Below are positions 5,901 to 19,488 of a DNA stretch of 64,000 nt, piece after piece (within the stretch, counting starts at the first letter, position 1; every line of letters begins with the position of its first letter). The stretch lies in NCBI GenBank assembly GCA_963729325.1, contig CAVSNS010000022.1, forward strand, positions 5,901 to 69,900. The letters are read 5' to 3'. Both the position numbers and the translations under genes were made by a program. Under the pieces are notes generated by a model. It was not told where the DNA came from and did not search any database. It worked only from the letters and a program-made list of their open reading frames with translations. Source of the DNA: an uncultured Acidobacteriota bacterium. Lineage in GTDB: Bacteria > Acidobacteriota > Terriglobia > Terriglobales > Acidobacteriaceae.

Positions 5901-6473
5901 CTACTTTCGGCCGGGATGGAACTCCCCGCGGTTGGAGAATTGCGAGTAAGGCCATTCGTTCTTCTTGGTGGGCAACGTGGAAGAGGTAACGGGCGCAAGG
6001 GACGCCGGGTCGACTTCCCAATCCGCGGGAGCGGGATGAATGCACCAAACATTTCCAATCTGATCAAGCGCCAGCCCAACCAGCCAGTACTTATTCTCAG
6101 TTCCGAGCGGGACGCAGTTTGCCACGCGAGCAGTTGCGTGATTGCCACCGGGAAGATCGTCCAGCCGCACCGGCGTTCCTGGCTCCAGAGGGCATGGAAG
6201 GCGCACTCCGCAGCCGTGTGGGTTCACGACCAGAGTGTGGCAGCTTTCTGAGAGCTGTGTGGCCGGATCCAAACTGGTCACGCGAAGCGGGATTTGAGCT
6301 CGAACGCGTGTGCGGCGAGTCGGTGTATCGTGCGATTTTGCGGTTGATTCCATATTGCGGGGCTTGTTCAAGATTTTACGTGCGAAATTCTGATTGGCGT
6401 TGATCTCGCTGGCAGAAACGGACACCAAAGTAACGGAGGCGTCGCCCTTCAACTGTAATGCCGGCGAGCTCAA
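5901..6473 (-). CDS. PilZ-like domain protein
   Basis: 190 aa. An RRTRVR motif (RxxxR) is followed by VVNPHGCGV, a variant of D/NxSxxG. The beta-rich remainder resembles the C-terminal PilZ of the 920-aa protein. Confidence 0.5.
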   Translation of the reverse strand: MSSPALQLKGDASVTLVSVSASEINANQNFARKILNKPRNMESTAKSHDTPTRRTRVRAQIPLRVTSLDPATQLSESCHTLVVNPHGCGVRLPCPLEPGTPVRLDDLPGGNHATARVANCVPLGTENKYWLVGLALDQIGNVWCIHPAPADWEVDPASLAPVTSSTLPTKKNEWPYSQFSNRGEFHPGRK

Positions 6474-6528: not shown

Positions 6529-7623
6529 TTAAATGGCGACCAGCTGAATTTGAATGAGCGGACCGGAACTATTTGCTCGGGCCTTGCGGAGCATGTTCGC
6601 GGAGGGAATGCCGGTGCGATGGAACGACTTCTCGCAATCCGCGGTCGAGGGCCCGCGCATGCTGCCTTCCATGTAGGCAAGACCGGGACAGCGAGTGCAG
6701 GTGCCAACATGGCTACAAGTCGAGCATACGGGTAGGTCTTTAGCGCGAATCGAGCGAACCTCATGCAAGGCCGGCGAATCGCGCCAGATGTCGATGAATT
6801 TCTGTTTTCGTACATTGCCACTGGGCAGGGGAAACTGCACGCAGGGAAAAACGTCGCCATAGGGAGTGATGTAGGCCGCTGTGTGACCGGCACTGCAAGG
6901 ATATCCGTCCATGATACCCTCGTCGGGCGGGGGCGGGGGGGCACAAAATTTTTCTACGTTTCCCACGAGGCCCGGATTGTGAAAAACTGCATTCAACTCT
7001 GAACCAGGAATACGCAAACTGAGGATTGAAGTGTCTCCATCCATCTTCGGAGTGATCGTCGGATCCAAAGTGTAGGTAACCCCGAGCTCGCGGGCCAGTG
7101 CCTGCACTCCTGCATGGTCGCGGCTGTTGGCCGTCATCAGAACATTAGCGATCACAACCTTCAAGCCCTGTAATTTCAGAAAGCGAATCGCTTCCACACT
7201 CCGCTTCAGCGAGCCCGGTAGTTTAGTGATAGCGTCATGCACTTCGGAGCGGTGGGAGTAGATGCTGATTTGTATGTTCTCGACTCCCAACTCCACCATC
7301 CGTTTGGCTTCACGCTGGCGGATCATCACGCCGTTGGTCTTGATTCTGACATTGAAGCGCAGGCGACGGGCATATTCCAGAATGTCGAAAAAGTCGCGTC
7401 GCATCAGCACTTCCCCGCCACTGAGGGTCAGAAAAAAAGTGCCTGCCTCGGCCAGTTGATCCAGCACGTCTTCGATCTCGGCGGTGCTCATTTCGCCGTG
7501 ATCGTCGTGATCCAGATAGCAGTGAACGCAGCGTTCGTTGCAACGGTACGTTACGTCCAGATGGATGGCGAGAGGAACACCCAGTTCCATGGCCCGCTGA
7601 TTCATCTGCTGCATGAGACTCAT
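6529..7623 (-). CDS. radical SAM / SPASM-domain peptide maturase
   Basis: The CNERCVHC motif (CxxxCxxC) lies near the N-terminus. A Cys-rich C-terminus (CSAGH...FPCVQ...CSTCSHVGTCTRCPG) is typical of SPASM auxiliary clusters. The ATG at 7621-7623 overlaps the upstream PqqD stop (ATGA). The ORF track extends the gene to 7647. Confidence 0.85.
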   Translation of the reverse strand: MSLMQQMNQRAMELGVPLAIHLDVTYRCNERCVHCYLDHDDHGEMSTAEIEDVLDQLAEAGTFFLTLSGGEVLMRRDFFDILEYARRLRFNVRIKTNGVMIRQREAKRMVELGVENIQISIYSHRSEVHDAITKLPGSLKRSVEAIRFLKLQGLKVVIANVLMTANSRDHAGVQALARELGVTYTLDPTITPKMDGDTSILSLRIPGSELNAVFHNPGLVGNVEKFCAPPPPPDEGIMDGYPCSAGHTAAYITPYGDVFPCVQFPLPSGNVRKQKFIDIWRDSPALHEVRSIRAKDLPVCSTCSHVGTCTRCPGLAYMEGSMRGPSTADCEKSFHRTGIPSANMLRKARANSSGPLIQIQLVAI

Positions 7624-7949
7624 GCTGTCTCCCTGGACCCAGTACATGGATCATCGATCGGACGATCCGAAACCAGCAAAATGCCGTGGGGGGAAAGCTC
7701 TTCGACGAATCGCTCGGCGTCGCGGAGTGCCACGCCGGGTTCGACCTCGAACTGCTCGATGACGCCGCCTACGATTTCGGAAAGTGGAGTGCGGCCGTCT
7801 GCCGACTGCCAGATGGCGGTGGCCACCTCATTCAGGGTGAAGAAGGTGGAGTCCACGGCGGACATGATCATCATCTCTCCGCCCAGCATTCGAGCGGCAA
7901 TGGCGGAACTGCGGGCAATGTATTTATTACTCATTGGATCAAGTCCCAA
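7620..7949 (-). CDS. PqqD-family peptide chaperone (RRE-type)
   Basis: 109 aa. FFTLNEVATAIWQSADGRTPLSEIVGGVIEQFEVEPGVALRDAERFVEELSPHGILL matches the PqqD winged-helix pattern. The gene is translationally coupled to the radical SAM gene. Confidence 0.75.
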   Translation of the reverse strand: MGLDPMSNKYIARSSAIAARMLGGEMMIMSAVDSTFFTLNEVATAIWQSADGRTPLSEIVGGVIEQFEVEPGVALRDAERFVEELSPHGILLVSDRPIDDPCTGSRETA

Positions 7950-8086
7950 ACCCGCTGGTCAGGAACGAACGTCAGCCGCCTTACCATAACACTTTCGACG
8001 AACTCACAGGCGGAGCGAAAAAGCATTTTGACCAACTTCGGGTAGTGGGCTAATTCTGTGTTGCTGCGTCAAATCTTTCCGTCATT

Positions 8087-8266
8087 CTAGGCCGAGGGTG
8101 AAATTAGATCCCAAGGCACATCTCTGTGCAGAACGAATACACCCTTTGTGCTCTTAACATCAGCGACTTTCTTCTGAGGGTCAACTTTGGTTACTACATA
8201 TGTTCCGGCGTATTTTGGATCTTTGACAAGGACCGTATCGCCCACTTTTGGTGTTTGGGTCGGCAT
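8087..8266 (-). CDS. 59-aa small ORF of unknown function (below ORF-track cutoff)
   Basis: Hand translation: MPTQTPKVGDTVLVKDPKYAGTYVVTKVDPQKKVADVKSTKGVFVLHRDVPWDLISPSA. It has the same orientation as the PqqD gene and lies 137 nt upstream of it. Confidence 0.3.
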   Translation of the reverse strand: MPTQTPKVGDTVLVKDPKYAGTYVVTKVDPQKKVADVKSTKGVFVLHRDVPWDLISPSA

Positions 8267-8364
8267 GCAAATAGTTTCCCATAGCCCCGTTTACATTGCC
8301 AGTCGGTGGGATTTCAAACTACACCACTACCAGACTGCGCAGGACTTGACTGTCCGGATTACGA

Positions 8365-8697
8365 TTGGGAATGACCACACAGACTCGGAAGTTCATCGAA
8401 CTGGCCGACATCCTTGGGATGCGCTTCGATTGCAGGAAGTGCCGCGCCAGCCTATCGCTGCCGATGGAGAAAAGCCCAAGCCCACCCAGCGACTGCCCGA
8501 ATTGCGGCTGCGACTGGACGGAGATGCCCGACGGGACTGACCACAAAGAGGAATTCCAAGTGCTGTCGGACGCGCTGGCAGCAGTTTCCCGCTTGCATCT
8601 CGGTTGTGCGTTCACGCTCGAAATTAAGCCTGAGCCGCAAGCAATTCCCCCATCTCCCACACGTGATCCGTTAGTCCACTCTGCATCGCAGGCGTGA
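8365..8697 (+). CDS. hypothetical zinc-ribbon protein, 3' end overlapped by (possibly disrupted by) the IS
   Basis: CRKC...CPNCGC pairs are present. A coherent sequence runs to ...AFTLEIK and then into the antisense of the transposase 3' end. Confidence 0.3.
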   Translation: MGMTTQTRKFIELADILGMRFDCRKCRASLSLPMEKSPSPPSDCPNCGCDWTEMPDGTDHKEEFQVLSDALAAVSRLHLGCAFTLEIKPEPQAIPPSPTRDPLVHSASQA

Positions 8698-9619
8698 CGC
8701 GCAGAGTTTGATGAACGCGGCAGAAGTTGTACCAAGCGAAGTACAGAGTCACCGCAGCCTTGAGGTTATCGAGCTTCTTAGAGAACGCATTGGTAAGCCG
8801 TGTAAAACGACGCACGTGCATACGCAGACTCAAATTCGACCGCTCGATATGAGACGTGCTGATATGTGCGGGATCGGGCCGTCCATCGCGGACTTTGGAT
8901 ATAACCTCCGTGATGTGTCCTGGGGAGTACCGCTCATTCCCATGCTGGCCGTAGTCTCCGAAGAGCTTTACAAGCTGCGCGAAGTCCACAGTTCCGCCGA
9001 ACACGTCCTCGACTCCCCGCTCGTAGAAGTGAAAGCCATCAGTGGTCAACTGGAATCGGCCCGCTGCAAGGCGCTTCTGCAAGCCGGAGAGAAATGCCAT
9101 CGTGGTTTCGCGGGTGCGCTTCCCGATCTCGAAACAAGGGATCAGTTTTGTTTCCGGGTCAAGCGCGATGAAAATCCACTGGTCACCAAGTTCGGCGGGG
9201 TCGCCGCTGCGAACGTGCCGCGCCTTCTTGCCCACGTAGCACCAGAGTTCATCGCACTGCACGTAATTGGCTTTAACTCCGCGAACCTTGGAATCGAGAA
9301 CACGCTGCGCATTCGCCGCTGCCGTCACCATAAGAGACAAAATCGTGTTCTTGTGCAATCCTGTGAAACGCGAGATGGCGCGAATACTCATTCCCTCAAG
9401 CATGAGGGACAGGGCTTTTGCCGCAGTCTCGGGATCGGTGTGGTGGGAGCCGAACGCCTTAGGGCTAGTGGGATCGGCAAAGGTCGCGTGGCAAGAATTG
9501 CAGCGCCAGCGTTGAATGCGGCGCTTACCGAAGTACCCGAACTTTTTGCAGGTTTGGTGCTGGCACTTGAGGCAGGTCATGGGGTTTCTCCGCTTGCGTT
9601 CTGCGGAGAAACCAGCCAA
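8624..9619 (-). mobile_element. IS1-family insertion sequence, single-ORF transposase (element ends not determined)
   Basis: 331 aa. An N-terminal Zn-finger (CLKCQH...CNSCH) and an HTH (SIRAISRFTGLHKNT) precede a DDE region. That region ends HIERSNLSLRMHVRRFTRLTNAFSKK, which resembles the IS1 InsB tail [25 protein letters not shown]. Confidence 0.7.
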
Positions 9620-9859
9620 AATAGCTTTGGGTCTGAGGCGTGGGTCACTCCGCGCTTTGGATTAGCCCCGCAACCTGTTTGCGCAGGAAGCGGGGCACTG
9701 ATTGTTAAGGGTTATGGGTTATCCCGGTGGCACAACGGTAATTTCCACCGTGGGCCCCTGAGCAGTGAATCGAACAACGATCACGATTTTCACTGTTCTC
9801 CTTTCTCAAGAAAACGCTCTGCGCTCGAATCGCAGGGCGTTTCGCATTTGCGTCCAAAG

Positions 9860-10267
9860 TCATTTCGCGTTTCTCGGGGCGATGATCTGATCCGGAACCG
9901 GGCAATATCTTCCAACTTCACATTCGTAAAGCTGGCGGCTCTTTGTGAGTCGCTTGAGGGCGCTATGAATGACTGCCAGCGGGTTCGAGTATCGGCTCAG
10001 GTCGTATCCCGCCAGCGCAAGATTATTTCTTATATCCGTTGGGCTCATGGGCACGGGGGCCATGCGGACGGCGGTGAGCACGATTTCCTGAAACCCAACA
10101 ATATCGGCCTGGGCGTGGTGAAAAAGATTCCTAGAAGTCGTGATCGCCAGGGACTTTACGAGCTGCTGAAGTCTTACAACTTCCATAGTCCAGTGATCGC
10201 GTTGTCTGATCGCAGAAAGAAGTTCCTCTCGGGCAGCGTTCAAAGCGTCATTGTATACATAGGCCAT
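9860..10267 (-). CDS. hypothetical protein
   Basis: 135-aa ORF with no recognisable motif. The C-terminus may be a winged helix. Confidence 0.3.
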   Translation of the reverse strand: MAYVYNDALNAAREELLSAIRQRDHWTMEVVRLQQLVKSLAITTSRNLFHHAQADIVGFQEIVLTAVRMAPVPMSPTDIRNNLALAGYDLSRYSNPLAVIHSALKRLTKSRQLYECEVGRYCPVPDQIIAPRNAK

Positions 10268-10472
10268 AAACTACAGCGAGGATATTATGCAATTGCATAA
10301 AAGTCAAGTAAATTCTGCAAAAGGAGTGGCCAAGCCTAGCTCATGGGATGAGGCGATACAAGAGGCTGAGCGGAAACTCCGAACTTCCACGACAAGAACC
10401 AAGCAGTTAGAAGCTGCCATTCGGACTTTTAGGGCACACAAGAGCAGCGGTTTGCCTTGGCCTCGCACAAAA

Positions 10473-11204
10473 TCAGCAACACGGAATTAGCCCAGTACCC
10501 AACTTCGCGTCCTCAGCGAAAAAGAGGATATTTCTGAGCAGGAGACGCGCGGCTTCGGGTGCGTCAACAGGCTCGATCTTGTTCTGGGGTCCCTTGACGA
10601 GAAAAAAAAGTGTGGATAGCTGCGCCGAGCAATTCTCGCCGACGCGCGCGAGTTCCCCGGCAAAGGGAGTTCCGCAAGCGCGATAACCGTACTGAGTGCG
10701 GCGAATGTAGGAGATTTCGTCGGTTAGCACGGTGACATCACGAGGCGCGAGACAGGCAATCGTGGTTTTGCCCGCTCCGGAGATGCCAGAGAAAAGAAAC
10801 GCCCGGTCATTCCGGACTGCGCTCGCGGCGTGGAGGAGGAATCCGCCTTCCTTGGCCAGAATCAAAGTGTGTACGATGCGCAGCACGGAATCGATGGAGT
10901 AGGGGTTGGCTGACTGACGAATGCGTCCCCGCCCTGCCCGAGGGTCCCAGTGCGCACGAAAATCTCCTCGGCGTAAGCGCCACATTCCATCCCGCATTTC
11001 GACCCGAACGTCGTCCTCCGATTCCGACTCCGGCAACTCGGACGGCGCGGTCAGATCCACATCAAACTCGAACCTGGGTTGTGAAGCAGACCCGACAAAA
11101 CCGGCGTACCTGCTAACCAGCATGTCACGAAAGATTCGATCCTGAGTGCGCAGCAGGATAGAAAAGCCCCCGATTTCCACCGCGATCTCATGATCTTGGG
11201 GCAC
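10473..11204 (-). CDS. HPr kinase C-terminal-like (HprK-related) kinase
   Basis: 243 aa with a GTG start. HAASAVRNDRAFLFSGISGAGKTT is a P-loop in the context typical of HprK-related kinases found in RiPP and lasso loci. Confidence 0.7.
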   Translation of the reverse strand: MPQDHEIAVEIGGFSILLRTQDRIFRDMLVSRYAGFVGSASQPRFEFDVDLTAPSELPESESEDDVRVEMRDGMWRLRRGDFRAHWDPRAGRGRIRQSANPYSIDSVLRIVHTLILAKEGGFLLHAASAVRNDRAFLFSGISGAGKTTIACLAPRDVTVLTDEISYIRRTQYGYRACGTPFAGELARVGENCSAQLSTLFFLVKGPQNKIEPVDAPEAARLLLRNILFFAEDAKLGTGLIPCC

Positions 11205-11239: not shown

Positions 11240-11737
11240 TCACGCTGGCCCGGCAACTGTAGCTTCAAAACGAGATCTGGAACTCCTGCGCTGAGCGTCG
11301 AGTCGCATGACGATACGCTGGAGCAGATTGCAATGACAAAGCATCCGGCCGAAAATTTGACGGAATGGACCAAGCTTCAGCGTAGGTGCAGGGAACCAAC
11401 TGTCACGTTGAATTTTCGTAACCTTACCCAGCAATTCGCCTGGACGCACGGGCGGATCGGCCTGCGGCATGCAGTCACCGCGAGTAATAAGGAACTCGTG
11501 CTCTAATCTGGTTTTGCTGAGAACACGATGAACAAAGAAGCGACCATCGCGCAAGAAAAGCACGACGTCACCGTGTTCCATTTGATCAAAATTACTATAT
11601 TGGATAGTAAGAAGGTCGCCTGGCCACAACGTGGGTAGCATGCTGGCTCCCGTGGCGCGCAATTTTAATTTGCCGCTCGACTGCAGCCCCTCGGCCGCCA
11701 GACTGCACTTTCGCTGCTCGCAGGCCTCAGCGTTCAT
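11240..11737 (-). CDS. SipW-like (ER/archaeal-type, S26B) signal-peptidase-family protease without an obvious TM anchor
   Basis: 165 aa. GASMLPTLWPGD is the Ser nucleophile box. FVHRV has His where bacterial SPase I has Lys, as in Bacillus SipW (THRI). A TRGDCMPQAD box follows. Confidence 0.65.
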   Translation of the reverse strand: MNAEACEQRKCSLAAEGLQSSGKLKLRATGASMLPTLWPGDLLTIQYSNFDQMEHGDVVLFLRDGRFFVHRVLSKTRLEHEFLITRGDCMPQADPPVRPGELLGKVTKIQRDSWFPAPTLKLGPFRQIFGRMLCHCNLLQRIVMRLDAQRRSSRSRFEATVAGPA

Positions 11738-11747
11738 CGGTAACAGC

Positions 11748-11927
11748 CTATGACACCTTCTTGTGACCGTGGCACTGATGCTGGGTGCCGCTGATCTTTC
11801 CGCAAGCCAAGGCCAGCGTCTCGAATGCCCGCTCGTAGCGAAACTCTGGCCTTTTGTACGGCTTCTTGGCTTTAGTCTGGCTCGGTGCGCTCCTGTCTTC
11901 TGCAGAAGGCCGGTTCCTCTGAGTCAT
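11748..11927 (-). CDS. candidate RiPP precursor peptide, 59 aa (below ORF-track cutoff)
   Basis: Hand translation: MTQRNRPSAEDRSAPSQTKAKKPYKRPEFRYERAFETLALACGKISGTQHQCHGHKKVS. An in-frame stop lies 5 codons upstream of the ATG. By my hand count about 70 percent of third positions are G/C. The ORF ends 10 nt upstream of the peptidase gene on the same strand. Confidence 0.5.
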   Translation of the reverse strand: MTQRNRPSAEDRSAPSQTKAKKPYKRPEFRYERAFETLALACGKISGTQHQCHGHKKVS

Positions 11928-12077
11928 AGAAATACCAATGCGCTAGACGGTTACGTCTGCCTTGCGAACGAAGCACGAGTCCTAAGATAGCGCAGTGTAC
12001 AACAGACAGGAAGCCAAATGCTAAACCTTTGTTAACTCCTCGGACGCCCGGAAGCCAAGCCCGACTGGCCTTGCGTC

Positions 12078-12887
12078 TTAATAGAAAGAGAGCGTGCCGA
12101 GAAACCTTGCGCGCCTTAAGGTGTGGGAAAAAATCAGGAGGCTGAAAGGCAGCAGTGTCAGGGAAAAAATGCTCAGCACCATGATTTCGGGTTCCAGAGC
12201 TGCGAAACTCGCGCCTTCAAGAAGTGCCATGCGCATTCCGTAGAGGGAGTGAGTGATGGGAATCAGGTCGGACAGCACGCGCAGCGCCCAGGGGAGAGTC
12301 GCGACGGGAAACAGGGCTCCGGTCAGAAACCACACGCCGGACCCAAGCAACCACACGACTGCAGATCCCTTTTGAATGGCCAATTGCAAGGCGGCAGCGA
12401 GAATGCCGAGCGCGACCGCGATCAGGAGCGACAGCAGGAAGATCAGTGCGCAAGCTGCGACATTTGGGCTGGGAATTGCGCCTCGCCATAACAGAAGGCC
12501 TGCTCCGATAAAAAGGAGCAGTTGGATCGTATTTCGGCCAAACGCGGAAAGGGCACTCAGTAGAACCAACAACGGCGCGGATGTAGAGGTGGTGACCAGT
12601 ATTTCCAGAGTGCCCGTCTGTTGCGCTTCCTGCACGATCTGCAGGAAAGCGCTGATACCCAGGAGCCAAAATGTGTAGAAGCCGGTGCCCACCAGCACGA
12701 AGGGGAAGTAATCCATTCCCTCGGGACGGAATGAGGGACCGATAGCACGAGAGAGGTAATAAAACGCGGCCAGTTCGGCTGCCGTTCCGGCCGCGGTAAT
12801 CAGAAAGCCTGAGCGATAGCGGATGGCGGTCAAGAGGTCGCGGCGCAGGATGGCGAGCATTTTGTCGAGCGGGCCGGCCAGTCTCAT
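12078..12887 (-). CDS. ABC-2 type transporter permease
   Basis: 269 aa with about 6 hydrophobic helices. It overlaps the upstream ATPase gene by 4 nt. Confidence 0.7.
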   Translation of the reverse strand: MRLAGPLDKMLAILRRDLLTAIRYRSGFLITAAGTAAELAAFYYLSRAIGPSFRPEGMDYFPFVLVGTGFYTFWLLGISAFLQIVQEAQQTGTLEILVTTSTSAPLLVLLSALSAFGRNTIQLLLFIGAGLLLWRGAIPSPNVAACALIFLLSLLIAVALGILAAALQLAIQKGSAVVWLLGSGVWFLTGALFPVATLPWALRVLSDLIPITHSLYGMRMALLEGASFAALEPEIMVLSIFSLTLLPFSLLIFSHTLRRARFLGTLSFY

Positions 12888-13681
12888 CGCCAGCTCCTGG
12901 AGGTCAACGGTGCCGCCTCATCCAGTTCACCAGTGGTCTGAAAATAGAAGGAGCGCAGCTCGTCCGCATCCGCGCCAGTAATTTTCCGGTAGCCCGCCAG
13001 TCGGCCCTTATCCAGCACGGCAGCAAAATCGCCCACCGCGGCGGCCTCGTTGAGGCTGTGTGTGGCCAGAATGACAGTCGAGCCTCCGGCGGGAAGGGCG
13101 CGGATGAGAGTCTGAAAGTGGGTCGCCGCCGCTGGGTCAAGGCTGCGCGTTGGCTCGTCCAGCAAGATGACTGAGGGCTCTTTAATGAGTGCCCGCGCGA
13201 TGCCCAAGCGCTGGTACATGCCACTGGAAAACTTCATGACCAGAGTGTCCGCAGCGTCGAGCAAGCCGGTCCGTTCCAGCACAAGTTCAATTTGACGAGG
13301 TCGTGAGCGGCGAGGGACATCATCCAAGGCGGCAAAGAAATCGAGATTCTCCCGAGCCGAAAGTCGAGGGAAAAATGACCTTTCAGTGGAAACCGCAAAA
13401 CCCACATGTCGACGCACATGATCGGGATCTGTGTAGGTGTCGGCGCCTTCGACCAGGACACTCCCGGCATCGGGAAGGAGCATGGTGGATACCAGCTTCA
13501 GAATGGTTGTTTTTCCACTGCCGTTGGGACCCAGCAGAACAAGCACCTTGCCGCTGGAAACTCGAAGGGAGATCCCATCCAAGGCATGAGTTTCTCCTCT
13601 TCGTTCCCGGCCCATCCAGTTAAACATAGCGGGGCGGTGCCGGAAAACTTTGCTGACCGACTGGAGGATGACACTATCCAT
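12884..13681 (-). CDS. ABC transporter ATP-binding protein
   Basis: Walker A GPNGSGKTT, signature FSSGMYQRL and Walker B ILLDEP are present. The likely start is MDSVILQSV at 13681. The 113-aa Arg-rich extension in the ORF track is probably not translated. Confidence 0.85.
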   Translation of the reverse strand: MDSVILQSVSKVFRHRPAMFNWMGRERRGETHALDGISLRVSSGKVLVLLGPNGSGKTTILKLVSTMLLPDAGSVLVEGADTYTDPDHVRRHVGFAVSTERSFFPRLSARENLDFFAALDDVPRRSRPRQIELVLERTGLLDAADTLVMKFSSGMYQRLGIARALIKEPSVILLDEPTRSLDPAAATHFQTLIRALPAGGSTVILATHSLNEAAAVGDFAAVLDKGRLAGYRKITGADADELRSFYFQTTGELDEAAPLTSRSWR

Positions 13682-13752
13682 TTTTCTATTGCAAGAGTAT
13701 CCCGCAAAGACAACGGTATTATAGTGGCGATCGCAGAACTTTCCGCGCCAGA

Positions 13753-14979
13753 GTGGAGCGGCTAATTTCGAAAAAACCACCCTCCCGTATGCCCTCTGCC
13801 CCGCCAATGCCGACAGTCCCGCCAGCCAAGCCTGAGCGACCACAGGTGCGAGCATTCGTCTCCAGCACCGAGTTCGACTTGTTGCTCGCCTGCTGCGCCC
13901 ACGCTTCTGGCGACGAACGTATCCGCGAGATTCTTGAAGGTCCGCTGGACTGGAAGCGGCTTCTCCAGCTTGCCGGGCACCACGCCGTGATACCTCAGCT
14001 ATATCAACGTCTGTCGGCATCCAATGTCATACCCCAAGCGTTGCCTTTGCTTCAGCAGCACTACGAAGCTAACGCGCGGCAGACCCTCTGGCTCACTCGC
14101 GAATTGCTCAGGATTCTCAGTCACTTGCAGAGAAACAGCATTGAGACTCTGCCATATAAGGGTCCCGTCCTGGCTGAAATTCTCTACGGCAATGTTGCGC
14201 TGCGTCAGTTTTCGGATCTGGATCTGCTGATCCACGAGGCGGACCTGGCGAAAGTCAAGGCCGCACTTCTCGAACTGGGATACAAGCCCGCGCTTCAGCT
14301 GACCCCGTGGCAAAACCGCGCTTATCTCGAGTCCGGGTATGAATACGCATTCGACAGCTCTCTCGGCCGGAACCTGTTGGAAATGCAGTGGCGGATTCTG
14401 CCACGTTTCTATTCGATCAACTTCGACGTCGACGCGTTTTTCAGCCGGTCCATGGTCCTGAGTTTAGGCGGACATTCTTTGCGCACGCTTTGCAAGGAAG
14501 ACTTAATGGTGGTGCTCTGCGTTCACGCCGCCAAGCATGTATGGGTACAGCTTTCCTGGCTGTGCGACATTGCGGAGTTATCCCAGTCAGTCGACTGGGT
14601 CGTCGTTCAGGACCACGCCCAGCGGTTGGGCATCGAACGAATCGTAGCGGTGACTTTCATCTTGGCTGCCCGACTTCTTGGGACACGCATGCCGCAACCA
14701 GTACAGGAGCGCATCCGCAACGATCGCGCTGCCGAAGGGCTTGCAGATAAAATTCTGCCAATCGTGGCGCAGAGAACGGAATACCACACGGAATCGATGG
14801 CTTATTTCCGGCTAATGATGGATGTGCGAGAACGGTGGCGGGATCGATTGCGTTTTGTGGGGCGATTGGCTTTCACCCCAAGCGTCGGGGAGTGGAGCTC
14901 GGTCCGATTGCCCGGCCCTCTGTTCCCGTTGTATCGCGTCGTGCGTCTGATGCGATTGGCGCGAAGATTGATTTCATAG
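13753..14979 (+). CDS. NTP_transf_5-type uncharacterised nucleotidyltransferase
   Basis: 408 aa. TEFDLLLACCAH...DWKRLLQLAGHHAVIPQLY and DLDLLI...KHVWVQLSWLCD fit my recollection of this family. The gene is divergent from the ABC operon. Confidence 0.65.
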   Translation: MERLISKKPPSRMPSAPPMPTVPPAKPERPQVRAFVSSTEFDLLLACCAHASGDERIREILEGPLDWKRLLQLAGHHAVIPQLYQRLSASNVIPQALPLLQQHYEANARQTLWLTRELLRILSHLQRNSIETLPYKGPVLAEILYGNVALRQFSDLDLLIHEADLAKVKAALLELGYKPALQLTPWQNRAYLESGYEYAFDSSLGRNLLEMQWRILPRFYSINFDVDAFFSRSMVLSLGGHSLRTLCKEDLMVVLCVHAAKHVWVQLSWLCDIAELSQSVDWVVVQDHAQRLGIERIVAVTFILAARLLGTRMPQPVQERIRNDRAAEGLADKILPIVAQRTEYHTESMAYFRLMMDVRERWRDRLRFVGRLAFTPSVGEWSSVRLPGPLFPLYRVVRLMRLARRLIS

Positions 14980-15000: not shown

Positions 15001-15822
15001 TCACCGTTTCGCATTCTTCCTTGCCCGCGCCATACCCGCCCGCAGACCTCGTTCGACGGCTCGCGTATATCCAGACTTCTTCATGCTGGCCATGGCTGCC
15101 GCCGAAATACCGCCCGGCGTGGCTGCCTCGTGCAGCAGATTCTGCAGCGATGTCTTGCCCTCACGCCAGGCGATAAGACCATCCGTGAGAGCGTGCAGGG
15201 CTGCAATCTGTGCCATTCTGCGACTGAGCCCCAACTTCTCGGCGGCTGCCGTCAATACCGCAAGGGCGTGATAGCCGTGGCTACAGGAGTAGGTCACGGT
15301 GAAGGCATCGAACTGGTTCTCAGGAATTTCTACAACGGGCCCGACTTTGCCAAAAAATTGCTTTACCTTTTGCTGTTCCGAGCGTGAGAGCTCGGGGTCA
15401 AACACCACCGCTGTCAGACCGCGCCGACTGCGGCATACCGGACTGGGCATGGCACGGGCCCAACGCACCGGCGGTCCCGCTCCAGCCCGCAACTTGGCCA
15501 GAGGAACACCCGCTGCGAGGCTGACGGCGGTCACGGGGTGGCTAATCTTCCCGATTCTGTCTAGCAATTCACGGACTGAGTTCGGCCTCACCGCGATGAT
15601 CAGAAGATGAGCTTGTTGCACCGCCTTGCCGAGATTATGTTCGACGATCACTCTGTACTGCTGTTTGAGACGCAGCACTTTGCGAGGATGGCGGTCATGC
15701 ACGACGATGGGCTTCTCATATCCAGAGAGCCGGAGGCCGGCCACAAGTGCGCTCGTGATCCGACCTCCGCCTAAAAAGACGGTCGCACTTTTTCGCACGG
15801 CTTTCACGCGAGGTCTACGCAA
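15001..15822 (-). CDS. proC: pyrroline-5-carboxylate reductase family protein
   Basis: The Rossmann N-terminus is FLGGGRITSAL. MPSPV...GLTAV and ATPGGISAAAM are P5CR signature regions. Confidence 0.7.
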   Translation of the reverse strand: MRRPRVKAVRKSATVFLGGGRITSALVAGLRLSGYEKPIVVHDRHPRKVLRLKQQYRVIVEHNLGKAVQQAHLLIIAVRPNSVRELLDRIGKISHPVTAVSLAAGVPLAKLRAGAGPPVRWARAMPSPVCRSRRGLTAVVFDPELSRSEQQKVKQFFGKVGPVVEIPENQFDAFTVTYSCSHGYHALAVLTAAAEKLGLSRRMAQIAALHALTDGLIAWREGKTSLQNLLHEAATPGGISAAAMASMKKSGYTRAVERGLRAGMARARKNAKR

Positions 15823-17144
15823 GCCCGGTCCACAGCCTCGATCAGCAACGCAATATCTTCATCCCTGTGCGCGGTGGAGATGATCCAGTGCAGTCCATTG
15901 GATGGCGTCATGTAGATGCCCTTGTCGAGCAAGCGATGGACGAAGCGAGAATAGCGCTGAGTATCCACATAGGTGCAGTAATCGCGATAGTCGTGAATGG
16001 CCTCCCGATCGGTGAAATAGATCTGGAACATGGGGCCAAACCCCTGCACGATCGCCTTGACGTTGCGCCGGCGAAATACTTCGCGCAATCCAGCAATTGC
16101 CGCATCGCCCATTGCATGAAGCTTGCGATATGCACCATCGGTAGATAGTAGATCGAGGTTAGCGGCGACCACCTTCATGGTAAGGCGGTGTCCGTTGAAG
16201 GTTCCATAGTGCAGGACCATGCCGTCGCCCCAGCGCATGCGATCGAGAATAGAGCGCGGACCCGTCACGGCGCCCACGGGAAATCCGGCGCCCAGCGCCT
16301 TGCCGAAGGTGCTGATATCGGGCTGGAGTCCGTAGTACTCCTGACAACCGCCAGGCGCGTAGCGGAACCCGGTGACGACTTCATCGAGAATGAGCAGCAC
16401 ACCGTAGTCGCGAATGAGTTCGCGGAGTCGCTTGAGAAAGCCATCGCGCGGGAGAATGCAGCCCATGTTGGCCATGATTGGCTCGGTGATAGCGGCCGCG
16501 AGTTCGCGGCCATGCTCGCGCAACACGCGCTCAATGCTGTCCACGTCATTCCATGGCGCGAGCACCACGTCGTCAAAGGTGGTCGGCGGAATGCCTTGCG
16601 AGTCAGGAATCCGGGCCGGGTTTTCCCGCGAACCCAGTTGCTCCAAGGGATGGCCGTGTGCATTCAAAAGATAAGGATCGTACCAGCCGTGATAGTGCCC
16701 TTCGAACTTCAGGAATTTGTGCCGTCCCGTGTGGGCACGCGCTAGCCTCAAGGCCAGCATGGTGGCTTCGCTGCCGCTGTTGGTGAAGCGAACCACTTCA
16801 GCGGATGGGACCATTCGGCAGAAGCGCTCGGCGGCGTCAACCTCTGCCGAGGTTGCGGCCGCAAAGTGTGCGCCCTCGGCCGCTGCCTGCGAAACCTTGT
16901 CAACCAGCTTGGGATGCGCATGGCCATGGATGAGCGCGCCAAACGACATCATGAAATCCACGTATTCGTTGCCGTCGGCGTCCCAGACGCGCGAACCCTG
17001 GCCGCGCTCGAGAAAGATTGGACCAGCAGTGTATACGGATAAGCCGCGCGAAGGGGAGTTCACGCCTTCGACCAGCGATTGTTGAGCGCGGCGAAACCAT
17101 TTCTGCGAGCGAGAAGCATGGCGGCTTGGAGCTGTCTTCGTCAA
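15804..17144 (-). CDS. class-III PLP aminotransferase, glutamate-1-semialdehyde 2,1-aminomutase-like
   Basis: 446 aa. FTNSGSEATMLALRLAR, LILDEVVTGFR and DISTFGKALGAGFPVGA (PLP Lys) are present. Confidence 0.8.
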   Translation of the reverse strand: MTKTAPSRHASRSQKWFRRAQQSLVEGVNSPSRGLSVYTAGPIFLERGQGSRVWDADGNEYVDFMMSFGALIHGHAHPKLVDKVSQAAAEGAHFAAATSAEVDAAERFCRMVPSAEVVRFTNSGSEATMLALRLARAHTGRHKFLKFEGHYHGWYDPYLLNAHGHPLEQLGSRENPARIPDSQGIPPTTFDDVVLAPWNDVDSIERVLREHGRELAAAITEPIMANMGCILPRDGFLKRLRELIRDYGVLLILDEVVTGFRYAPGGCQEYYGLQPDISTFGKALGAGFPVGAVTGPRSILDRMRWGDGMVLHYGTFNGHRLTMKVVAANLDLLSTDGAYRKLHAMGDAAIAGLREVFRRRNVKAIVQGFGPMFQIYFTDREAIHDYRDYCTYVDTQRYSRFVHRLLDKGIYMTPSNGLHWIISTAHRDEDIALLIEAVDRACVDLA

Positions 17145-17189
17145 TGCTCCTCAGTGCCCACGTAACGGACCGAGCGTGCCGGCAACGAC

Positions 17190-17951
17190 CTAGTCGGCCG
17201 TGCCGCCGCCATCCACCACAAGCGCAGCTCCGGTCATGAACGACGTGTCGTCGGAAGCGAGAAACAGAACGGCTTTGGCGATTTCGTTGGCAGTTCCTAT
17301 CCGCCCTAAGGGCCGGTTGCTGCAACCTGCCAGATAATCTTCCCATTTCAAACCGCGCATACGCGCGTCCCCTGGAAGCATGGGCGTATCTACGTCTCCG
17401 GGACAGATGCAATTCACCCGGATACCCTGCCGCCCGTGATCGATCGCCATCGCCTTGGTCAGAAGAACCACGCCGCCTTTGGAAGCGCAGTATGCCACCG
17501 CCGCGTCGCCACCCACGATCCCCCAGCCGGAGCTATTGTTGATGATTACGCCGCTGCCCTGCTGGATCATGCCAGGCAGTGCGGACTTCGACATTAGGAA
17601 AGTGCCCTTCAGGTTGATGTCAATTTGGAGGTCCCATTCTTCTTCGGTGCAATCAAGGGCGGTGTGGGGATAGAAAATACCGGCGTTGTTGAACAGGATG
17701 TCCAGGCGACCGAAAGCGTGCACGGTTTCGTCGACGGCGCGGCGGCATTCTTCCGATTTCCTGACATCGGTACGGATAAAAATGGCGGAACCACCTTCTT
17801 TCAAAATTTGCTCGGTCACGGAATGGCCACGCTTTTCGTTGCGGCCGGCTATGGCTATTTTGGCGCCTTCTTTGGCAAAGAGGAGCGCCGAGGCTTCACC
17901 GATGCCGGACGTCCCACCCGTTATGAGAGCGACTTTGTTTGCCAGGCGCAT
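17190..17951 (-). CDS. short-chain dehydrogenase/reductase (SDR)
   Basis: TGGTSGIG, NNAG and YCASKGG motifs. Confidence 0.85.
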   Translation of the reverse strand: MRLANKVALITGGTSGIGEASALLFAKEGAKIAIAGRNEKRGHSVTEQILKEGGSAIFIRTDVRKSEECRRAVDETVHAFGRLDILFNNAGIFYPHTALDCTEEEWDLQIDINLKGTFLMSKSALPGMIQQGSGVIINNSSGWGIVGGDAAVAYCASKGGVVLLTKAMAIDHGRQGIRVNCICPGDVDTPMLPGDARMRGLKWEDYLAGCSNRPLGRIGTANEIAKAVLFLASDDTSFMTGAALVVDGGGTAD

Positions 17952-17965
17952 AGGTGTGGCCCAAG

Positions 17966-18739
17966 CTACGACCCTGCCAAGCCCCCACCGTCTACGACGA
18001 GCGCAGTGCCGGTCACGAACGACGCTGCATCACTTGCCAAGTACAGCGCTGCCTGCGCAACCTCCTCCGGCTTGCCTACGCGGCCTAGAGGACGCTGGGT
18101 GGATTCTTCGAGAAAGCGCTCGATCGATTCTCCCAGTTGCTGGGCTTCGTCGCGCAGCATCGTGGTATCGGTGTCCCCGGGGCAGATGCAGTTTACGCGA
18201 ATGCTAGACGGGCCGTGGTCTATGGCCATGGCTTTAGTGAGCAACACCACTGCGCCTTTAGACGCGCAGTACACCGCCGCCTTCGGGCCGGCAACAAGTC
18301 CCCAGCCTGATGCCATATTGATGATGGAACCTCCGCCGGCCTTCTCCATGATTGGGATAACTTGGCGCGACATCAGAAAAATGGATTTTACATTGACGGC
18401 CATCACCCGGTCCCAGTCTGCTTCGCTGAGCTCGACAACGGAGGCGCGCCGGATGATCCCCGCATTGTTGAAGAGAACGTGAATCCCGCCCAGTTCTCGC
18501 GATGTATTTGCCACTACGCGCTCACAAGCGGCAAGTTTTGTAACATCGGCGGTCTGAAAGAAACCCCGACCTCCATTCTGTACGATCTCCTGGACGACCG
18601 CGTCTCCCGCCTGCTGATTCAGGTCCGCGATTGCGACCGACGCACCTTCCTGGGCAAAAAGCAGCGCCGTTGCCCGTCCTATGCCGGAAGCGCCGCCGGT
18701 GATGAGCGCGACCTTACCGTTAAGCTGTCCTCCACTCAC
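17966..18739 (-). CDS. short-chain dehydrogenase/reductase (SDR)
   Basis: TGGASGIG, NNAG and YCASKGA motifs. Paralogue of the neighbouring SDR genes. Confidence 0.85.
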   Translation of the reverse strand: MSGGQLNGKVALITGGASGIGRATALLFAQEGASVAIADLNQQAGDAVVQEIVQNGGRGFFQTADVTKLAACERVVANTSRELGGIHVLFNNAGIIRRASVVELSEADWDRVMAVNVKSIFLMSRQVIPIMEKAGGGSIINMASGWGLVAGPKAAVYCASKGAVVLLTKAMAIDHGPSSIRVNCICPGDTDTTMLRDEAQQLGESIERFLEESTQRPLGRVGKPEEVAQAALYLASDAASFVTGTALVVDGGGLAGS

Positions 18740-19488
18740 CGGCTGGCCAGCCCTCCTGCGGTCTCCGCACCGTCAATCGTATAGACCTGCCCCGTCATGT
18801 ACGCGGCGTCGTCAGACGCCAAGAACGCGAACAGGGCCGCGATCTCCTCAGGCTGGGCGTGGCGGCGGAGAGGAATCTTGCGATTTAGCTCTTCCAGCAT
18901 CTCGTCGGTATATTCGGCACGCTGCATGGGCGTTAGCACGTATCCCGGGGCGACTGCGCAGACTCGAACTTTGGGCGCGAGTTCCAGAGCCATGGACTTG
19001 GTCAGCTCGATGACTCCAGCTTTTGTGGCGTTGTAGTCGGCATAGTAGGGCTGGCCGACGAGGCCGTTAGTCGAGGCAGTCTGAAGAATCACTCCGCTGC
19101 CACGCTCCCACATATGCCTGGCGGCGGTCTGGGCCACATAGAAGACCCCAGTCAGATTTACGGCGATGACTTTGTCCCATTCCTGGGGCGTGATGTCCAG
19201 AAAGTTATGGCGGATGCTGATGCCGGCGTTATTCACTAGCACGTCTAGGCCGCCCATCATGCGGACAGCGTCGGCAAAAGCCGCCTCAACCTGCTTAAGG
19301 TTTGAGACGTCGGCATTTAGCGTACCGGCGAGCTTCGGCAAGTGCGTCTGGATCTGCTTGAGGCCCTGAACGTCGCGGTCAAGCACACATACGACCGAGC
19401 CTTCTTCCAGAAAGCGTGCCGCAGTCGCAGCCCCAATCCCGCTTGCTCCACCCGTGATCAGGACACGCTTGCCGGTGAGCCCTCGCAT
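18736..19488 (-). CDS. short-chain dehydrogenase/reductase (SDR)
   Basis: TGGASGIG, NNAG and YNATKAG motifs. It overlaps the next SDR by 4 nt. Confidence 0.85.
   Translation of the reverse strand: MRGLTGKRVLITGGASGIGAATAARFLEEGSVVCVLDRDVQGLKQIQTHLPKLAGTLNADVSNLKQVEAAFADAVRMMGGLDVLVNNAGISIRHNFLDITPQEWDKVIAVNLTGVFYVAQTAARHMWERGSGVILQTASTNGLVGQPYYADYNATKAGVIELTKSMALELAPKVRVCAVAPGYVLTPMQRAEYTDEMLEELNRKIPLRRHAQPEEIAALFAFLASDDAAYMTGQVYTIDGAETAGGLASR

Follow-up and report, generated by a model that had tools for sequence, protein, structure and literature searches.

A short conserved gene of soil Acidobacteriota that probably encodes the precursor of a modified peptide with a leader module like that of linear polyphosphorylated peptides

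Linear polyphosphorylated peptide (LPP) clusters of Bacillota comprise LppA, LppB, LppS, LppK, LppN and LppD (Popov et al., Nat Commun 2026, PMC13381572). Here, we describe a locus that resembles them in a window of 64,000 nucleotides (the whole stretch of DNA analysed; positions 5,901 to 69,900 of contig CAVSNS010000022.1, assembly GCA_963729325.1) from an uncultured bacterium of the Acidobacteriaceae. Few soil bacteria are as abundant as Acidobacteriota, and hardly any natural product of theirs has been characterised. We estimate at about 80% the probability that a 59-codon open reading frame (ORF) at 11748..11927 on the minus strand is the precursor gene for a peptide that is ribosomally synthesised and modified after translation (RiPP), belonging to a pathway common in soil Acidobacteriota (Terriglobales, Bryobacterales). 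Its closest known system is the LPP family, of which it is most likely a relative with a radical S-adenosylmethionine (rSAM) enzyme added.

The core genes of LPP clusters encode a signal peptidase I (SpI)-like enzyme (LppS), a discrete RiPP recognition element (RRE; LppB), an HprK-like kinase (LppK), a nucleoside triphosphate transferase (LppN) and an MsbA-like exporter. The precursors (35–200 aa) carry the motif YxxPxVLxHQxIxFETxxS and have long cores described as 'highly variable'. LppS requires LppB and cleaves after the T of FET, for which F at −3, E at −2 and T at −1 are needed; substitutions in the first five core residues had no effect on this cleavage. LppK polyphosphorylates Ser3 of the core, and crystal structures show the leader Tyr and Pro held by D70 and N33 of LppB. 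LPPs were stated to be restricted to Bacillota, and the main text of that paper makes no mention of radical SAM, SPASM or Acidobacteria (all PMC13381572). In the lasso peptides paeninodin and pseudomycoidin, the C-terminal Ser is (poly)phosphorylated by the HprK-like kinases PadeK and PsmK, and is then glycosylated through an enzyme of a nucleotidyltransferase family, as in the hexosylation that depends on PsmN (PMC6993621).

The acidobacterial peptide gene and the parts of its product are as follows.

11748..11927, minus strand: putative precursor peptide gene, 59 codons (translation, homologue conservation, synteny)
11841..11858, minus strand: predicted RRE-binding motif of the leader, Y24-K-R-P27-E-F29 (YxKPxF in the family, with KK[P] before it)
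11817..11825, minus strand: F35-E36-T37, predicted to be recognised by the SpI-like peptidase and cut after T37
11805..11813, minus strand: A39-L40-A41, alternative AxA-type cleavage site directly before C42
11751..11804, minus strand: putative core C42..S59, CGK-x7-C-x6-S(end), with C42, C52 and S59 as candidate modified residues

The minus-strand translation of 11748–11927 is MTQRNRPSAEDRSAPSQTKAKKPYKRPEFRYERAFETLALACGKISGTQHQCHGHKKVS*, with the stop codon at 11748–11750, and the peptidase gene begins 10 nt downstream on the same strand, as a preliminary description of this region had it. The residue features listed in that description (YKRPEF, a T-L pair, ALA-C, two Cys, three His and a terminal Ser) can all be read in the translation. 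Seven residues separate F29 from T37, which forms the pair with L38, and the last 18 residues hold Cys 42 and 52, His 50, 53 and 55 and the terminal Ser59. GC content is 0.51, 0.51 and 0.71 at codon positions 1, 2 and 3, in agreement with an earlier hand count of about 70 percent G/C at third positions. Pfam and NCBIfam scans assigned neither the peptide nor the product of the antisense ORF to a family. A PDB sequence search with the peptide profile gave no match, and such a search does not retrieve the LppA leader chain either. Where the peptide has been called at all, it is named only 'hypothetical protein'.

Short ORFs are common by chance in the window (a 15-kb stretch of this 57% GC sequence has 142 ORFs with 40 aa or more), and the case for a gene therefore rests on comparative evidence. 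A word-indexed protein search returned 12 homologues of 59–63 aa with 65–100% identity, whose alignment has the invariant pattern KPY.KPEFR.E..FETLAL.CGKI....C....K.S. Scanning one genome for each species with a back-translated pattern identified 58 loci with homologues 41–100% identical, all in metagenome-assembled genomes (MAGs) of Acidobacteriota (Terriglobales, Terriglobia, Bryobacterales, Acidobacteriaceae). In addition, when 1.84 billion representatives were scanned exhaustively with HMMER, 526 clusters reached E ≤ 1e-3, among them 226 with E ≤ 1e-10. The codon test was applied to 64 distinct nucleotide versions from all loci (Acidobacteriota MAGs and metagenomes). The sense frame was free of stops in all 64, whereas stops occurred in 27–60 of them in each of the other five frames, and the pooled ratio of non-synonymous to synonymous polymorphism (pN/pS) was 0.43 in the sense frame against 0.62–1.34 in the others. 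Column entropy was 0.86, 0.87 and 1.47 at codon positions 1, 2 and 3; variation is concentrated at the third position, the synonymous bias between homologues for which the preliminary description had proposed to look. This conservation, together with the codon-aware substitution pattern, lifts the 59-codon ORF above chance. It is a real, strongly conserved gene under purifying selection.

The degree of constraint can be judged from six metagenome contigs (L066–L071) to which the peptide ORF is identical at 180 of 180 nt, although the flanking 9.4 kb is only 95% identical. Unlike the peptide ORF, the adjacent peptidase shows many residue differences from the same contigs, and of all genes in the locus, the precursor seems to be under the strongest constraint. 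The longer antisense ORF at 11763..11990 (plus strand), with which the sense ORF has its codon boundaries in common, had been suspected of being a mere shadow. Its frame contains stops in 27 of the 64 versions and has a pN/pS of 1.23, and it was rejected as the real gene on account of these interruptions. The abundance of short ORFs in 57% GC sequence and the greater length of the antisense ORF might suggest that the 59-codon frame arose by chance, the real feature being the antisense ORF or a non-coding element. The sense frame is never interrupted, however, an Rfam scan of the region gave no match, and promoter- and terminator-like sites are not enriched there (0 and 1 found). This reading can practically be dismissed.

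The family consensus, built from the 64 versions and 150 representatives of the peptide clusters, begins with about 20 variable residues and continues as K-K-(P)-Y-x-K-P-x-F-R-x-E-R-x-F-E-T-x-A-L-x-C-G-K-x7-C-x5-[KR]-x-S(end). Residues 21–45 are near-invariant, and the tail is variable except for C52, [KR]57 and S59. The Y and P of the leader motif are invariant or near-invariant across homologues. In all 64 versions, FET, A39 and L40 are unchanged; residue 41 is one of A, S, T or V, and CGK is invariant save for one CAK. The terminal Ser, whose conservation the preliminary description had asked about, ends the peptide in 144 of the 150 representative clusters; the two Cys are 10 residues apart in 122 of 136 representatives, and in 116 of 137 the stretch that begins with the first Cys has a length of 18 residues. 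The three His of the window peptide show no conservation, either in the alignment of 12 homologues or in the 64 versions, and were rejected as metal or modification sites. The 'Cys/His core' of the preliminary description therefore stands as far as both near-invariant Cys are concerned and falls with respect to the His; judged by residue conservation, it is best called a Cys core.

Three precursor copies each were found in two loci, L057 (starts 355, 5389 and 7965) and L049 (starts 7986, 13067 and 15642). From F30 to the end, the copies have one and the same sequence (FRFERVFETRALTCGKVQQTQGSCAHNRKSS), and their N-termini diverge; they lie several kb apart, with genes without a Pfam match between them (a Pfam scan of those between the three L057 copies found no family). 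Such sets of three copies sharing identical cores represent typical behaviour of RiPP precursors. The RRE motif of one L049 copy is degenerate (KEALSQAEF). In another locus (L053:3667-4065), the peptide lacks its terminal stop and continues as ...NRKTSWLITG..., and in L044 the peptide was recovered as a fragment only; both cases may reflect decay or an assembly artefact.

The likeness to LPP systems is greatest in two neighbouring genes.

11240..11737, minus strand: putative soluble SpI-like leader peptidase (S26B/SipW/SEC11-type, S24/S26-like), 165 aa
7620..7934, minus strand: discrete PqqD-family RRE, 104 aa (PF05402, 1.1e-14)

The peptidase matches PF00717 at 25.1 bits (above the cut-off) and TIGR02228 sigpep_I_arch at 5.9e-11 (below the cut-off). 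In blastp comparisons with sequences from Supplementary Data 1 of PMC13381572, it matched four LppS-type enzymes at 1e-9 to 3e-14 with 28–33% identity, and the peptidases of cluster 3 of the sequence similarity network (SSN) at least as well (5e-12 to 5e-15). Acidobacteriota, Myxococcota, Chloroflexota, Schekmanbacteria and Desantisbacteria are represented in the unstudied SSN cluster 3, several of whose members are paired with 'other' RREs (PMC13381572). Thus, RRE-guided signal peptidase homologues are probably widespread beyond both families. The equivalents of S29, H68 and D93 of LppS are invariant in 56–57 of the 57 acidobacterial homologues and, in the alignment, the window peptidase lacks the N-terminal membrane anchor of SipW. 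The best PDB sequence matches of the PqqD protein are the lasso B1 RREs TbiB1 (5v1u) and PbaB1 (9x90). Equivalents of N33 and D70 of LppB are invariant in 54 of 54 PqqD homologues, and the pocket residues are hydrophobic. The leader motif that the preliminary description had compared with RRE-binding motifs is thus conserved as YxxPxF beside a partner that retains the Asn and Asp for binding Pro and Tyr. Judged from sequence, the peptidase and the RRE have homologues in a pair that has been characterised by experiment, and their catalytic and predicted binding residues are conserved.

The locus therefore shares with LPP systems a soluble archaeal/endoplasmic reticulum-type SpI homologue with a conserved Ser/His/Asp triad as the presumed leader peptidase, a discrete PqqD-type RRE retaining the Tyr- and Pro-binding Asp and Asn, and a leader apparently of the form KKxYxxPx[V/F]...FET. 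When the peptide family was aligned with 14 LPP precursors by hhalign, KKpYxKPeFRyE--RVFET fell on kkxYxxPxVLxhQxIxFET over 26 columns with a 2-residue gap. A P-loop gene apparently of the HprK superfamily, an uncharacterised nucleotidyltransferase gene and an ATP-binding cassette (ABC) exporter are likewise present in both kinds of cluster. In contrast to LPP clusters, the acidobacterial cluster has an rSAM/SPASM enzyme as a constant member, its kinase-like protein is of the ScmC type, and its exporter is a two-gene ABC-2 system rather than MsbA-like. The spacer between YxxPxF and FET is two residues shorter, and the core, which holds two invariant Cys and ends in Ser, is short (18–22 aa) and fixed in length. 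Furthermore, the hosts here are Acidobacteriota.

Two leader cleavage sites have to be weighed. A cut at A39-L40-A41|C42, the site singled out in the preliminary description, would leave the pathway unchanged and release an 18-residue product beginning with Cys. This would suit a peptidase of the S26 family, an invariant A39 and a position 41 that is always small or β-branched, and length is most tightly constrained if the count begins at Cys42. LppS, the sole characterised homologue, cuts instead after FET (F at −3, T at −1), which is conserved here, and does not depend on the first five core residues. The ALA|C cut has no precedent in the LPP system. Val at −1, found in some members, is unfavourable for classical signal peptidase I by the −3/−1 rule. 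Accordingly, the conserved FET boundary has the better support from LPP homology. On balance, a cut after T37 is somewhat favoured over one after A41; we regard the ALA|C cut as possible and rather unlikely.

The remaining enzymes and the exporter are encoded around this module.

10501..11204, minus strand: ScmC-like (PF27840) P-loop protein of predicted HprK/PEPCK type, 3' end truncated by an insertion sequence (IS); the ORF runs into the IS to 10473
6529..7623, minus strand: rSAM/SPASM enzyme, 364 aa, no fused RRE domain (PF04055, PF13186)
12078..12887, minus strand: ABC-2 type permease (PF12698, PF01061), upstream of the peptide in 35/57 loci
12884..13681, minus strand: ABC ATPase (DrrA-like; PF00005), 37/57 loci
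13753..14979, plus strand: divergent NTP_transf_5 nucleotidyltransferase (PF14907, 8.4e-59)

The assignment of the ScmC-like protein to PF27840 comes from precomputed Pfam annotation of its relatives. Its family has an invariant GxSGxGKTT P-loop, a preceding LHAAS motif and an invariant D175/E176. An AlphaFold2 model (predicted local distance difference test score 82, predicted template modelling (TM) score 0.80) gave ATP-dependent phosphoenolpyruvate carboxykinase (PEPCK) as the best Foldseek matches (E 5e-9, TM 0.5), and HprK/P was not among the best 50 matches listed. PDB sequence searches with the single sequence and with a profile returned P-loop-level matches to DnaX and PEPCK and none to HprK/P. 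The ATP-PEPCK fold superfamily includes HprK/P. The model thus points to a PEPCK/HprK-type fold. Against NCBIfam, the protein matched ScmC at 3.7e-8 (33 bits against a cut-off of 125) and HprK_rel_A/B at ~1e-5 over the P-loop only, all far below the cut-offs.

In the rSAM enzyme, a CxxxCxxC motif at residues ~27–34 and a complete 7-Cys SPASM motif can be read from the sequence. Its PDB sequence matches (SkfB, SuiB, PqqE and CteB) begin ~90–100 residues into these RRE-bearing enzymes. Without an N-terminal RRE of its own, the rSAM enzyme presumably depends on the discrete PqqD protein. A combination of an ScmC-family protein, a PqqD homologue and a PqqE-like rSAM/SPASM enzyme is also characteristic of the SynChlorMet (TIGR04248–04251: ScmC, ScmD, ScmE and ScmF) and GeoRSP systems, and to our knowledge the SynChlorMet precursor has never been identified. 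The acidobacterial cluster differs from SynChlorMet in having one rSAM enzyme rather than two and in the addition of a peptidase, a nucleotidyltransferase and an exporter, and besides ScmC it misses the equivalog scores for ScmD (25 bits against 100) and ScmE (96 against 400). With the sactipeptide and ranthipeptide systems (SkfB, CteB, AlbA and StsB) and WgkB, it shares an rSAM/SPASM enzyme with the full auxiliary-cluster motif and a Cys-containing core; it differs from them in the missing fused RRE, in matches below the cut-offs and in having only two Cys. The invariant C-G-K triplet is presumably reminiscent of the W-G-K motif of WGK/tryglysin peptides, and serves as a lead only.

The rSAM enzyme also aligns end to end with MftC (125 bits, below the cut-off of 265), and reaches 93 bits against PqqE, for which the cut-off is 381. 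Together with the discrete PqqD protein, a pairing as in PqqE/PqqD and MftC/MftB, and with a near-invariant C-terminal residue as in MftA, this might indicate the precursor of an intracellular cofactor or small molecule, similar to PQQ or mycofactocin, that is not secreted. The peptide, however, has neither the C-terminal Gly-Val-Tyr motif of MftA nor the Glu-x3-Tyr motif of PqqA. Moreover, the dedicated ABC exporter is conserved in ~35 of 57 loci, a leader peptidase is present whose type has been shown to free a long core, and a fixed 18-residue core with two invariant Cys is more than a cofactor precursor needs. A cofactor precursor is therefore improbable.

A paeninodin-type lasso peptide was likewise considered. 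The acidobacterial peptide resembles such precursors in its C-terminal Ser, its YxxPxF motif ([Y/W]xxP in the lasso leaders) and a Thr near the end of the leader, and the cluster, like pade and psm, has HprK-like and nucleotidyltransferase genes, together with a discrete RRE closest in sequence to lasso B1 proteins. The peptidase class differs, however, being that of a serine SpI-like enzyme, and an rSAM enzyme is present. No Pfam family of an Asn synthetase-like lasso cyclase or a transglutaminase-like B2 protease was listed within ±10 kb in nine annotated related loci. The peptide has no conserved acidic residue after residue 37 that could close a ring, and its Thr lies at −1 or −5 and not at −2. 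The lasso precursor was rejected on the absence of a cyclase and B2 protease from those loci and on the missing acidic ring residue, and is very improbable.

The sequence features thus place the system outside the defining features of LPPs, lasso peptides, SynChlorMet, mycofactocin and PQQ, and the literature that was searched contained nothing on the acidobacterial peptide or its cluster. Three generic features of an RRE-dependent RiPP precursor are present: an adjacent conserved gene, constraint in the sense frame and a two-part organisation into leader and core. By these features, the system would clearly operate as RRE-guided RiPP systems do, its leader and peptidase module being of LPP type.

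Synteny ties the peptide to the enzymes. In related contigs, the order is fixed as the divergent NTP_transf_5 gene, ABC ATPase, ABC-2 permease, peptide, peptidase (165 aa), ScmC (PF27840; 265–281 aa), PqqD (104 aa) and rSAM/SPASM (364 aa). By tblastn across 57 species loci, the peptidase was found downstream of the peptide in 45, ScmC in 44, PqqD in 43 and rSAM in 44. The homologous small ORF that the preliminary description expected at the equivalent position of related loci is therefore present, with the peptidase directly downstream in those 45. The NTP_transf_5 gene lies ≤ 7 kb from the peptide in 42 of the 57 loci, and the permease and ATPase counts listed above apply to the same distance. 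Metagenome contigs near-identical to the window match it at 95–97% over 14.6 kb. Overlaps of 4 nt join the peptidase, ScmC, PqqD and rSAM genes of the intact relative L067, suggesting translational coupling. A 378-aa ORF call for the ATPase (12884..14020) over-extends by ~113 codons and overlaps the divergent NTP_transf_5 ORF; since relatives start at MDSVILQ... (265 aa), the gene probably corresponds to 12884..13681. At one locus (L012), the cluster is rearranged, with the ScmC match on the opposite strand and no PqqD match, which may be decay or an assembly artefact.

We propose the following pathway. The peptide would consist of a variable, charged N-terminus (residues 1–20), a leader recognition segment (residues 21–37, KKPYxKPxF...FET) and a length-constrained core, (xALx)CGK-x7-C-x5-[KR]xS. 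The PqqD protein would bind Y24xxP27xF29 in the manner of lasso B1 and LppB RREs, as its homology and conserved contact residues suggest, and hand the peptide to the RRE-less rSAM/SPASM enzyme for modification of the core. The most plausible targets are the invariant Cys42 and Cys52, which may receive thioether-type cross-links; because C-G-K is invariant and contiguous, a local cross-link is suggested. The ScmC-like enzyme may phosphorylate a hydroxyl group, for which the near-invariant C-terminal Ser is the best candidate given the PadeK and PsmK precedent, and the NTP_transf_5 protein may elaborate the Ser phosphate, as the PsmN-dependent hexosylation would allow. The SpI-like peptidase would then remove the leader, most likely by a cut after T37 of FET if it acts like LppS, and the ABC-2 transporter would export the product. 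Class III/IV lanthipeptide synthetases activate Ser for elimination and Cys addition. The P-loop enzyme could alternatively activate Ser in this way.

Several observations weigh against this interpretation. Every chemical step of the pathway is inferred from sequence. FET is replaced (FEV, FVT, FES, FER or FAT) in 13 of the 150 representatives, all distant ones, and the Ser phosphorylated at core position +3 in LPPs corresponds to an invariant Leu in the acidobacterial family. The hhalign match of the leaders is modest (E 0.0014, probability 18%), a statistic that is coherent with the homologous RRE and peptidase. The ScmC-like protein is no more than a candidate kinase because HprK-related models match it only around the P-loop, at ~1e-5. 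The rSAM enzyme falls below every curated NCBIfam rSAM cut-off, the best models being NirJ2, AhbD, MftC, TIGR04053, GeoRSP, WgkB, StsB and ScmE. No Shine–Dalgarno sequence is evident upstream of the peptide ORF. Finally, in ~12 of the 57 species, the peptide gene lies away from the enzyme genes, and the biology of the peptide may therefore exceed this cluster.

At such separated loci, a further gene recurs. Either directly next to the peptide gene or immediately following rSAM, 19 of 57 loci encode a conserved, secreted-looking protein of 500–620 aa, here called protein X. These include 10 or 11 of the ~12 loci where the peptide gene stands apart from the enzymes (among them L024, L030, L034, L037, L042, L047, L048, L049, L056 and L063), and eight full-cluster loci (L022, L028, L035, L039, L040, L041, L051 and L055). 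Two examples are as follows.

L034:8467-10107, plus strand: protein X
L048:6288-7973, plus strand: protein X

Protein X has an N-terminal DW[ST]xH[RH]xIF[ST] motif, a body rich in Gly, Ser, Thr and Asn, a C-terminal ...TQ[SA][AG]LQ and, in some members, a signal peptide. A Pfam scan assigned it to no family and gave only faint hints of a β-propeller, and it is absent from the window. The co-occurrence hints that protein X is a functional partner or target of the peptide, and the loci with protein X and no enzyme genes nearby could also be read as a sign that the peptide has no RiPP role and is a small conserved protein of another kind, such as a regulator, adaptor or subunit. This is difficult to reconcile with a leader that fits RRE-binding motifs and a cognate RRE that retains the binding residues. 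The combination of a variable N-terminus with a short tail that holds invariant Cys and a terminal Ser does not resemble a small folded protein, and multiple copies with identical cores and tight operon linkage with PqqD and rSAM likewise argue against such a role, which we regard as quite improbable.

Returning to the RiPP precursor, we tentatively suggest, while putting it short of an even chance, that the peptide represents a new and very abundant RiPP class of soil Acidobacteriota, in which an rSAM-installed cross-link on the two Cys (perhaps within CGK) is combined with a phosphate or phospho-glycosyl group on the terminal Ser, the leader is removed by an RRE-guided signal peptidase homologue, and the product possibly acts in partnership with protein X. 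If true, such a partnership would point to an extracellular structural or signalling role rather than that of an antibiotic. With the acidobacterial cluster, the principle of an SpI-like leader peptidase guided by an RRE, which was first reported in May 2026 and described as restricted to Bacillota, would extend beyond this phylum and be linked to radical SAM chemistry, and a candidate type of substrate becomes available for orphan ScmC/PqqD/rSAM cassettes. The precursor and its cluster recur in thousands of metagenome proteins and 526 divergent peptide clusters. With a substrate identified, the pathway is directly testable using a 59-aa peptide and five or six small enzymes. For specialists in RiPPs and soil microbiology, the system is abundant and compact, with the cautions that its chemistry is conjectural and that the copy in the window is disrupted by an IS. 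As a practical warning, 60-aa ORF cut-offs hide the key gene of such clusters.

The disruption, which the preliminary description had not noticed in the kinase-like gene, comprises the following features.

8040..10500, no strand assigned: intact-looking IS of 2.46 kb (2461 bp) inside the 3' part of the ScmC-like gene (blastn against the uninterrupted L067)
8624..9619, minus strand: IS1-family transposase
7931..8039, minus strand: displaced remnant with the final ~34 codons of the ScmC-like gene (3' end; collinear with L067 9424–9530)

The IS has terminal inverted repeats of 27 nt (8040–8066 and 10474–10500) and, according to the junction alignment, is flanked by a 6-bp target duplication, AACTTC (8034–8039 and 10501–10506). 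Since the near-identical contigs L066–L071 do not carry it, the insertion is recent. The ~34 residues cut from the ScmC-like protein include family-invariant ones, and the IS separates PqqD and rSAM from the upstream genes, leaving the peptide gene intact. This loss and separation probably make the locus non-functional or impaired here; that is, the IS probably inactivates the cluster or exerts a polar effect on it in this strain.

Beyond the cluster, a 920-aa HD-GYP/GAF/GGDEF/PilZ protein (2450..5212, plus strand) adjoins it in the window and recurs beside it in annotated close relatives. An ORF at 5901..6473 (minus strand) looks PilZ-like by eye and matched no Pfam family; its C-terminal part corresponds to a 91-aa ORF of relatives (orf91), which was found in 19 of 57 loci. 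The HD-GYP and PilZ neighbours could reflect c-di-GMP-linked regulation or mere synteny. On the other side, beyond NTP_transf_5, the region 15001..19488 (minus strand) encodes a P5CR/F420-oxidoreductase-like protein, an Aminotran_3 aminotransferase and three tandem short-chain dehydrogenases. These genes are syntenic in close relatives, and the P5CR-like gene occurs in 16 of the 57 loci.

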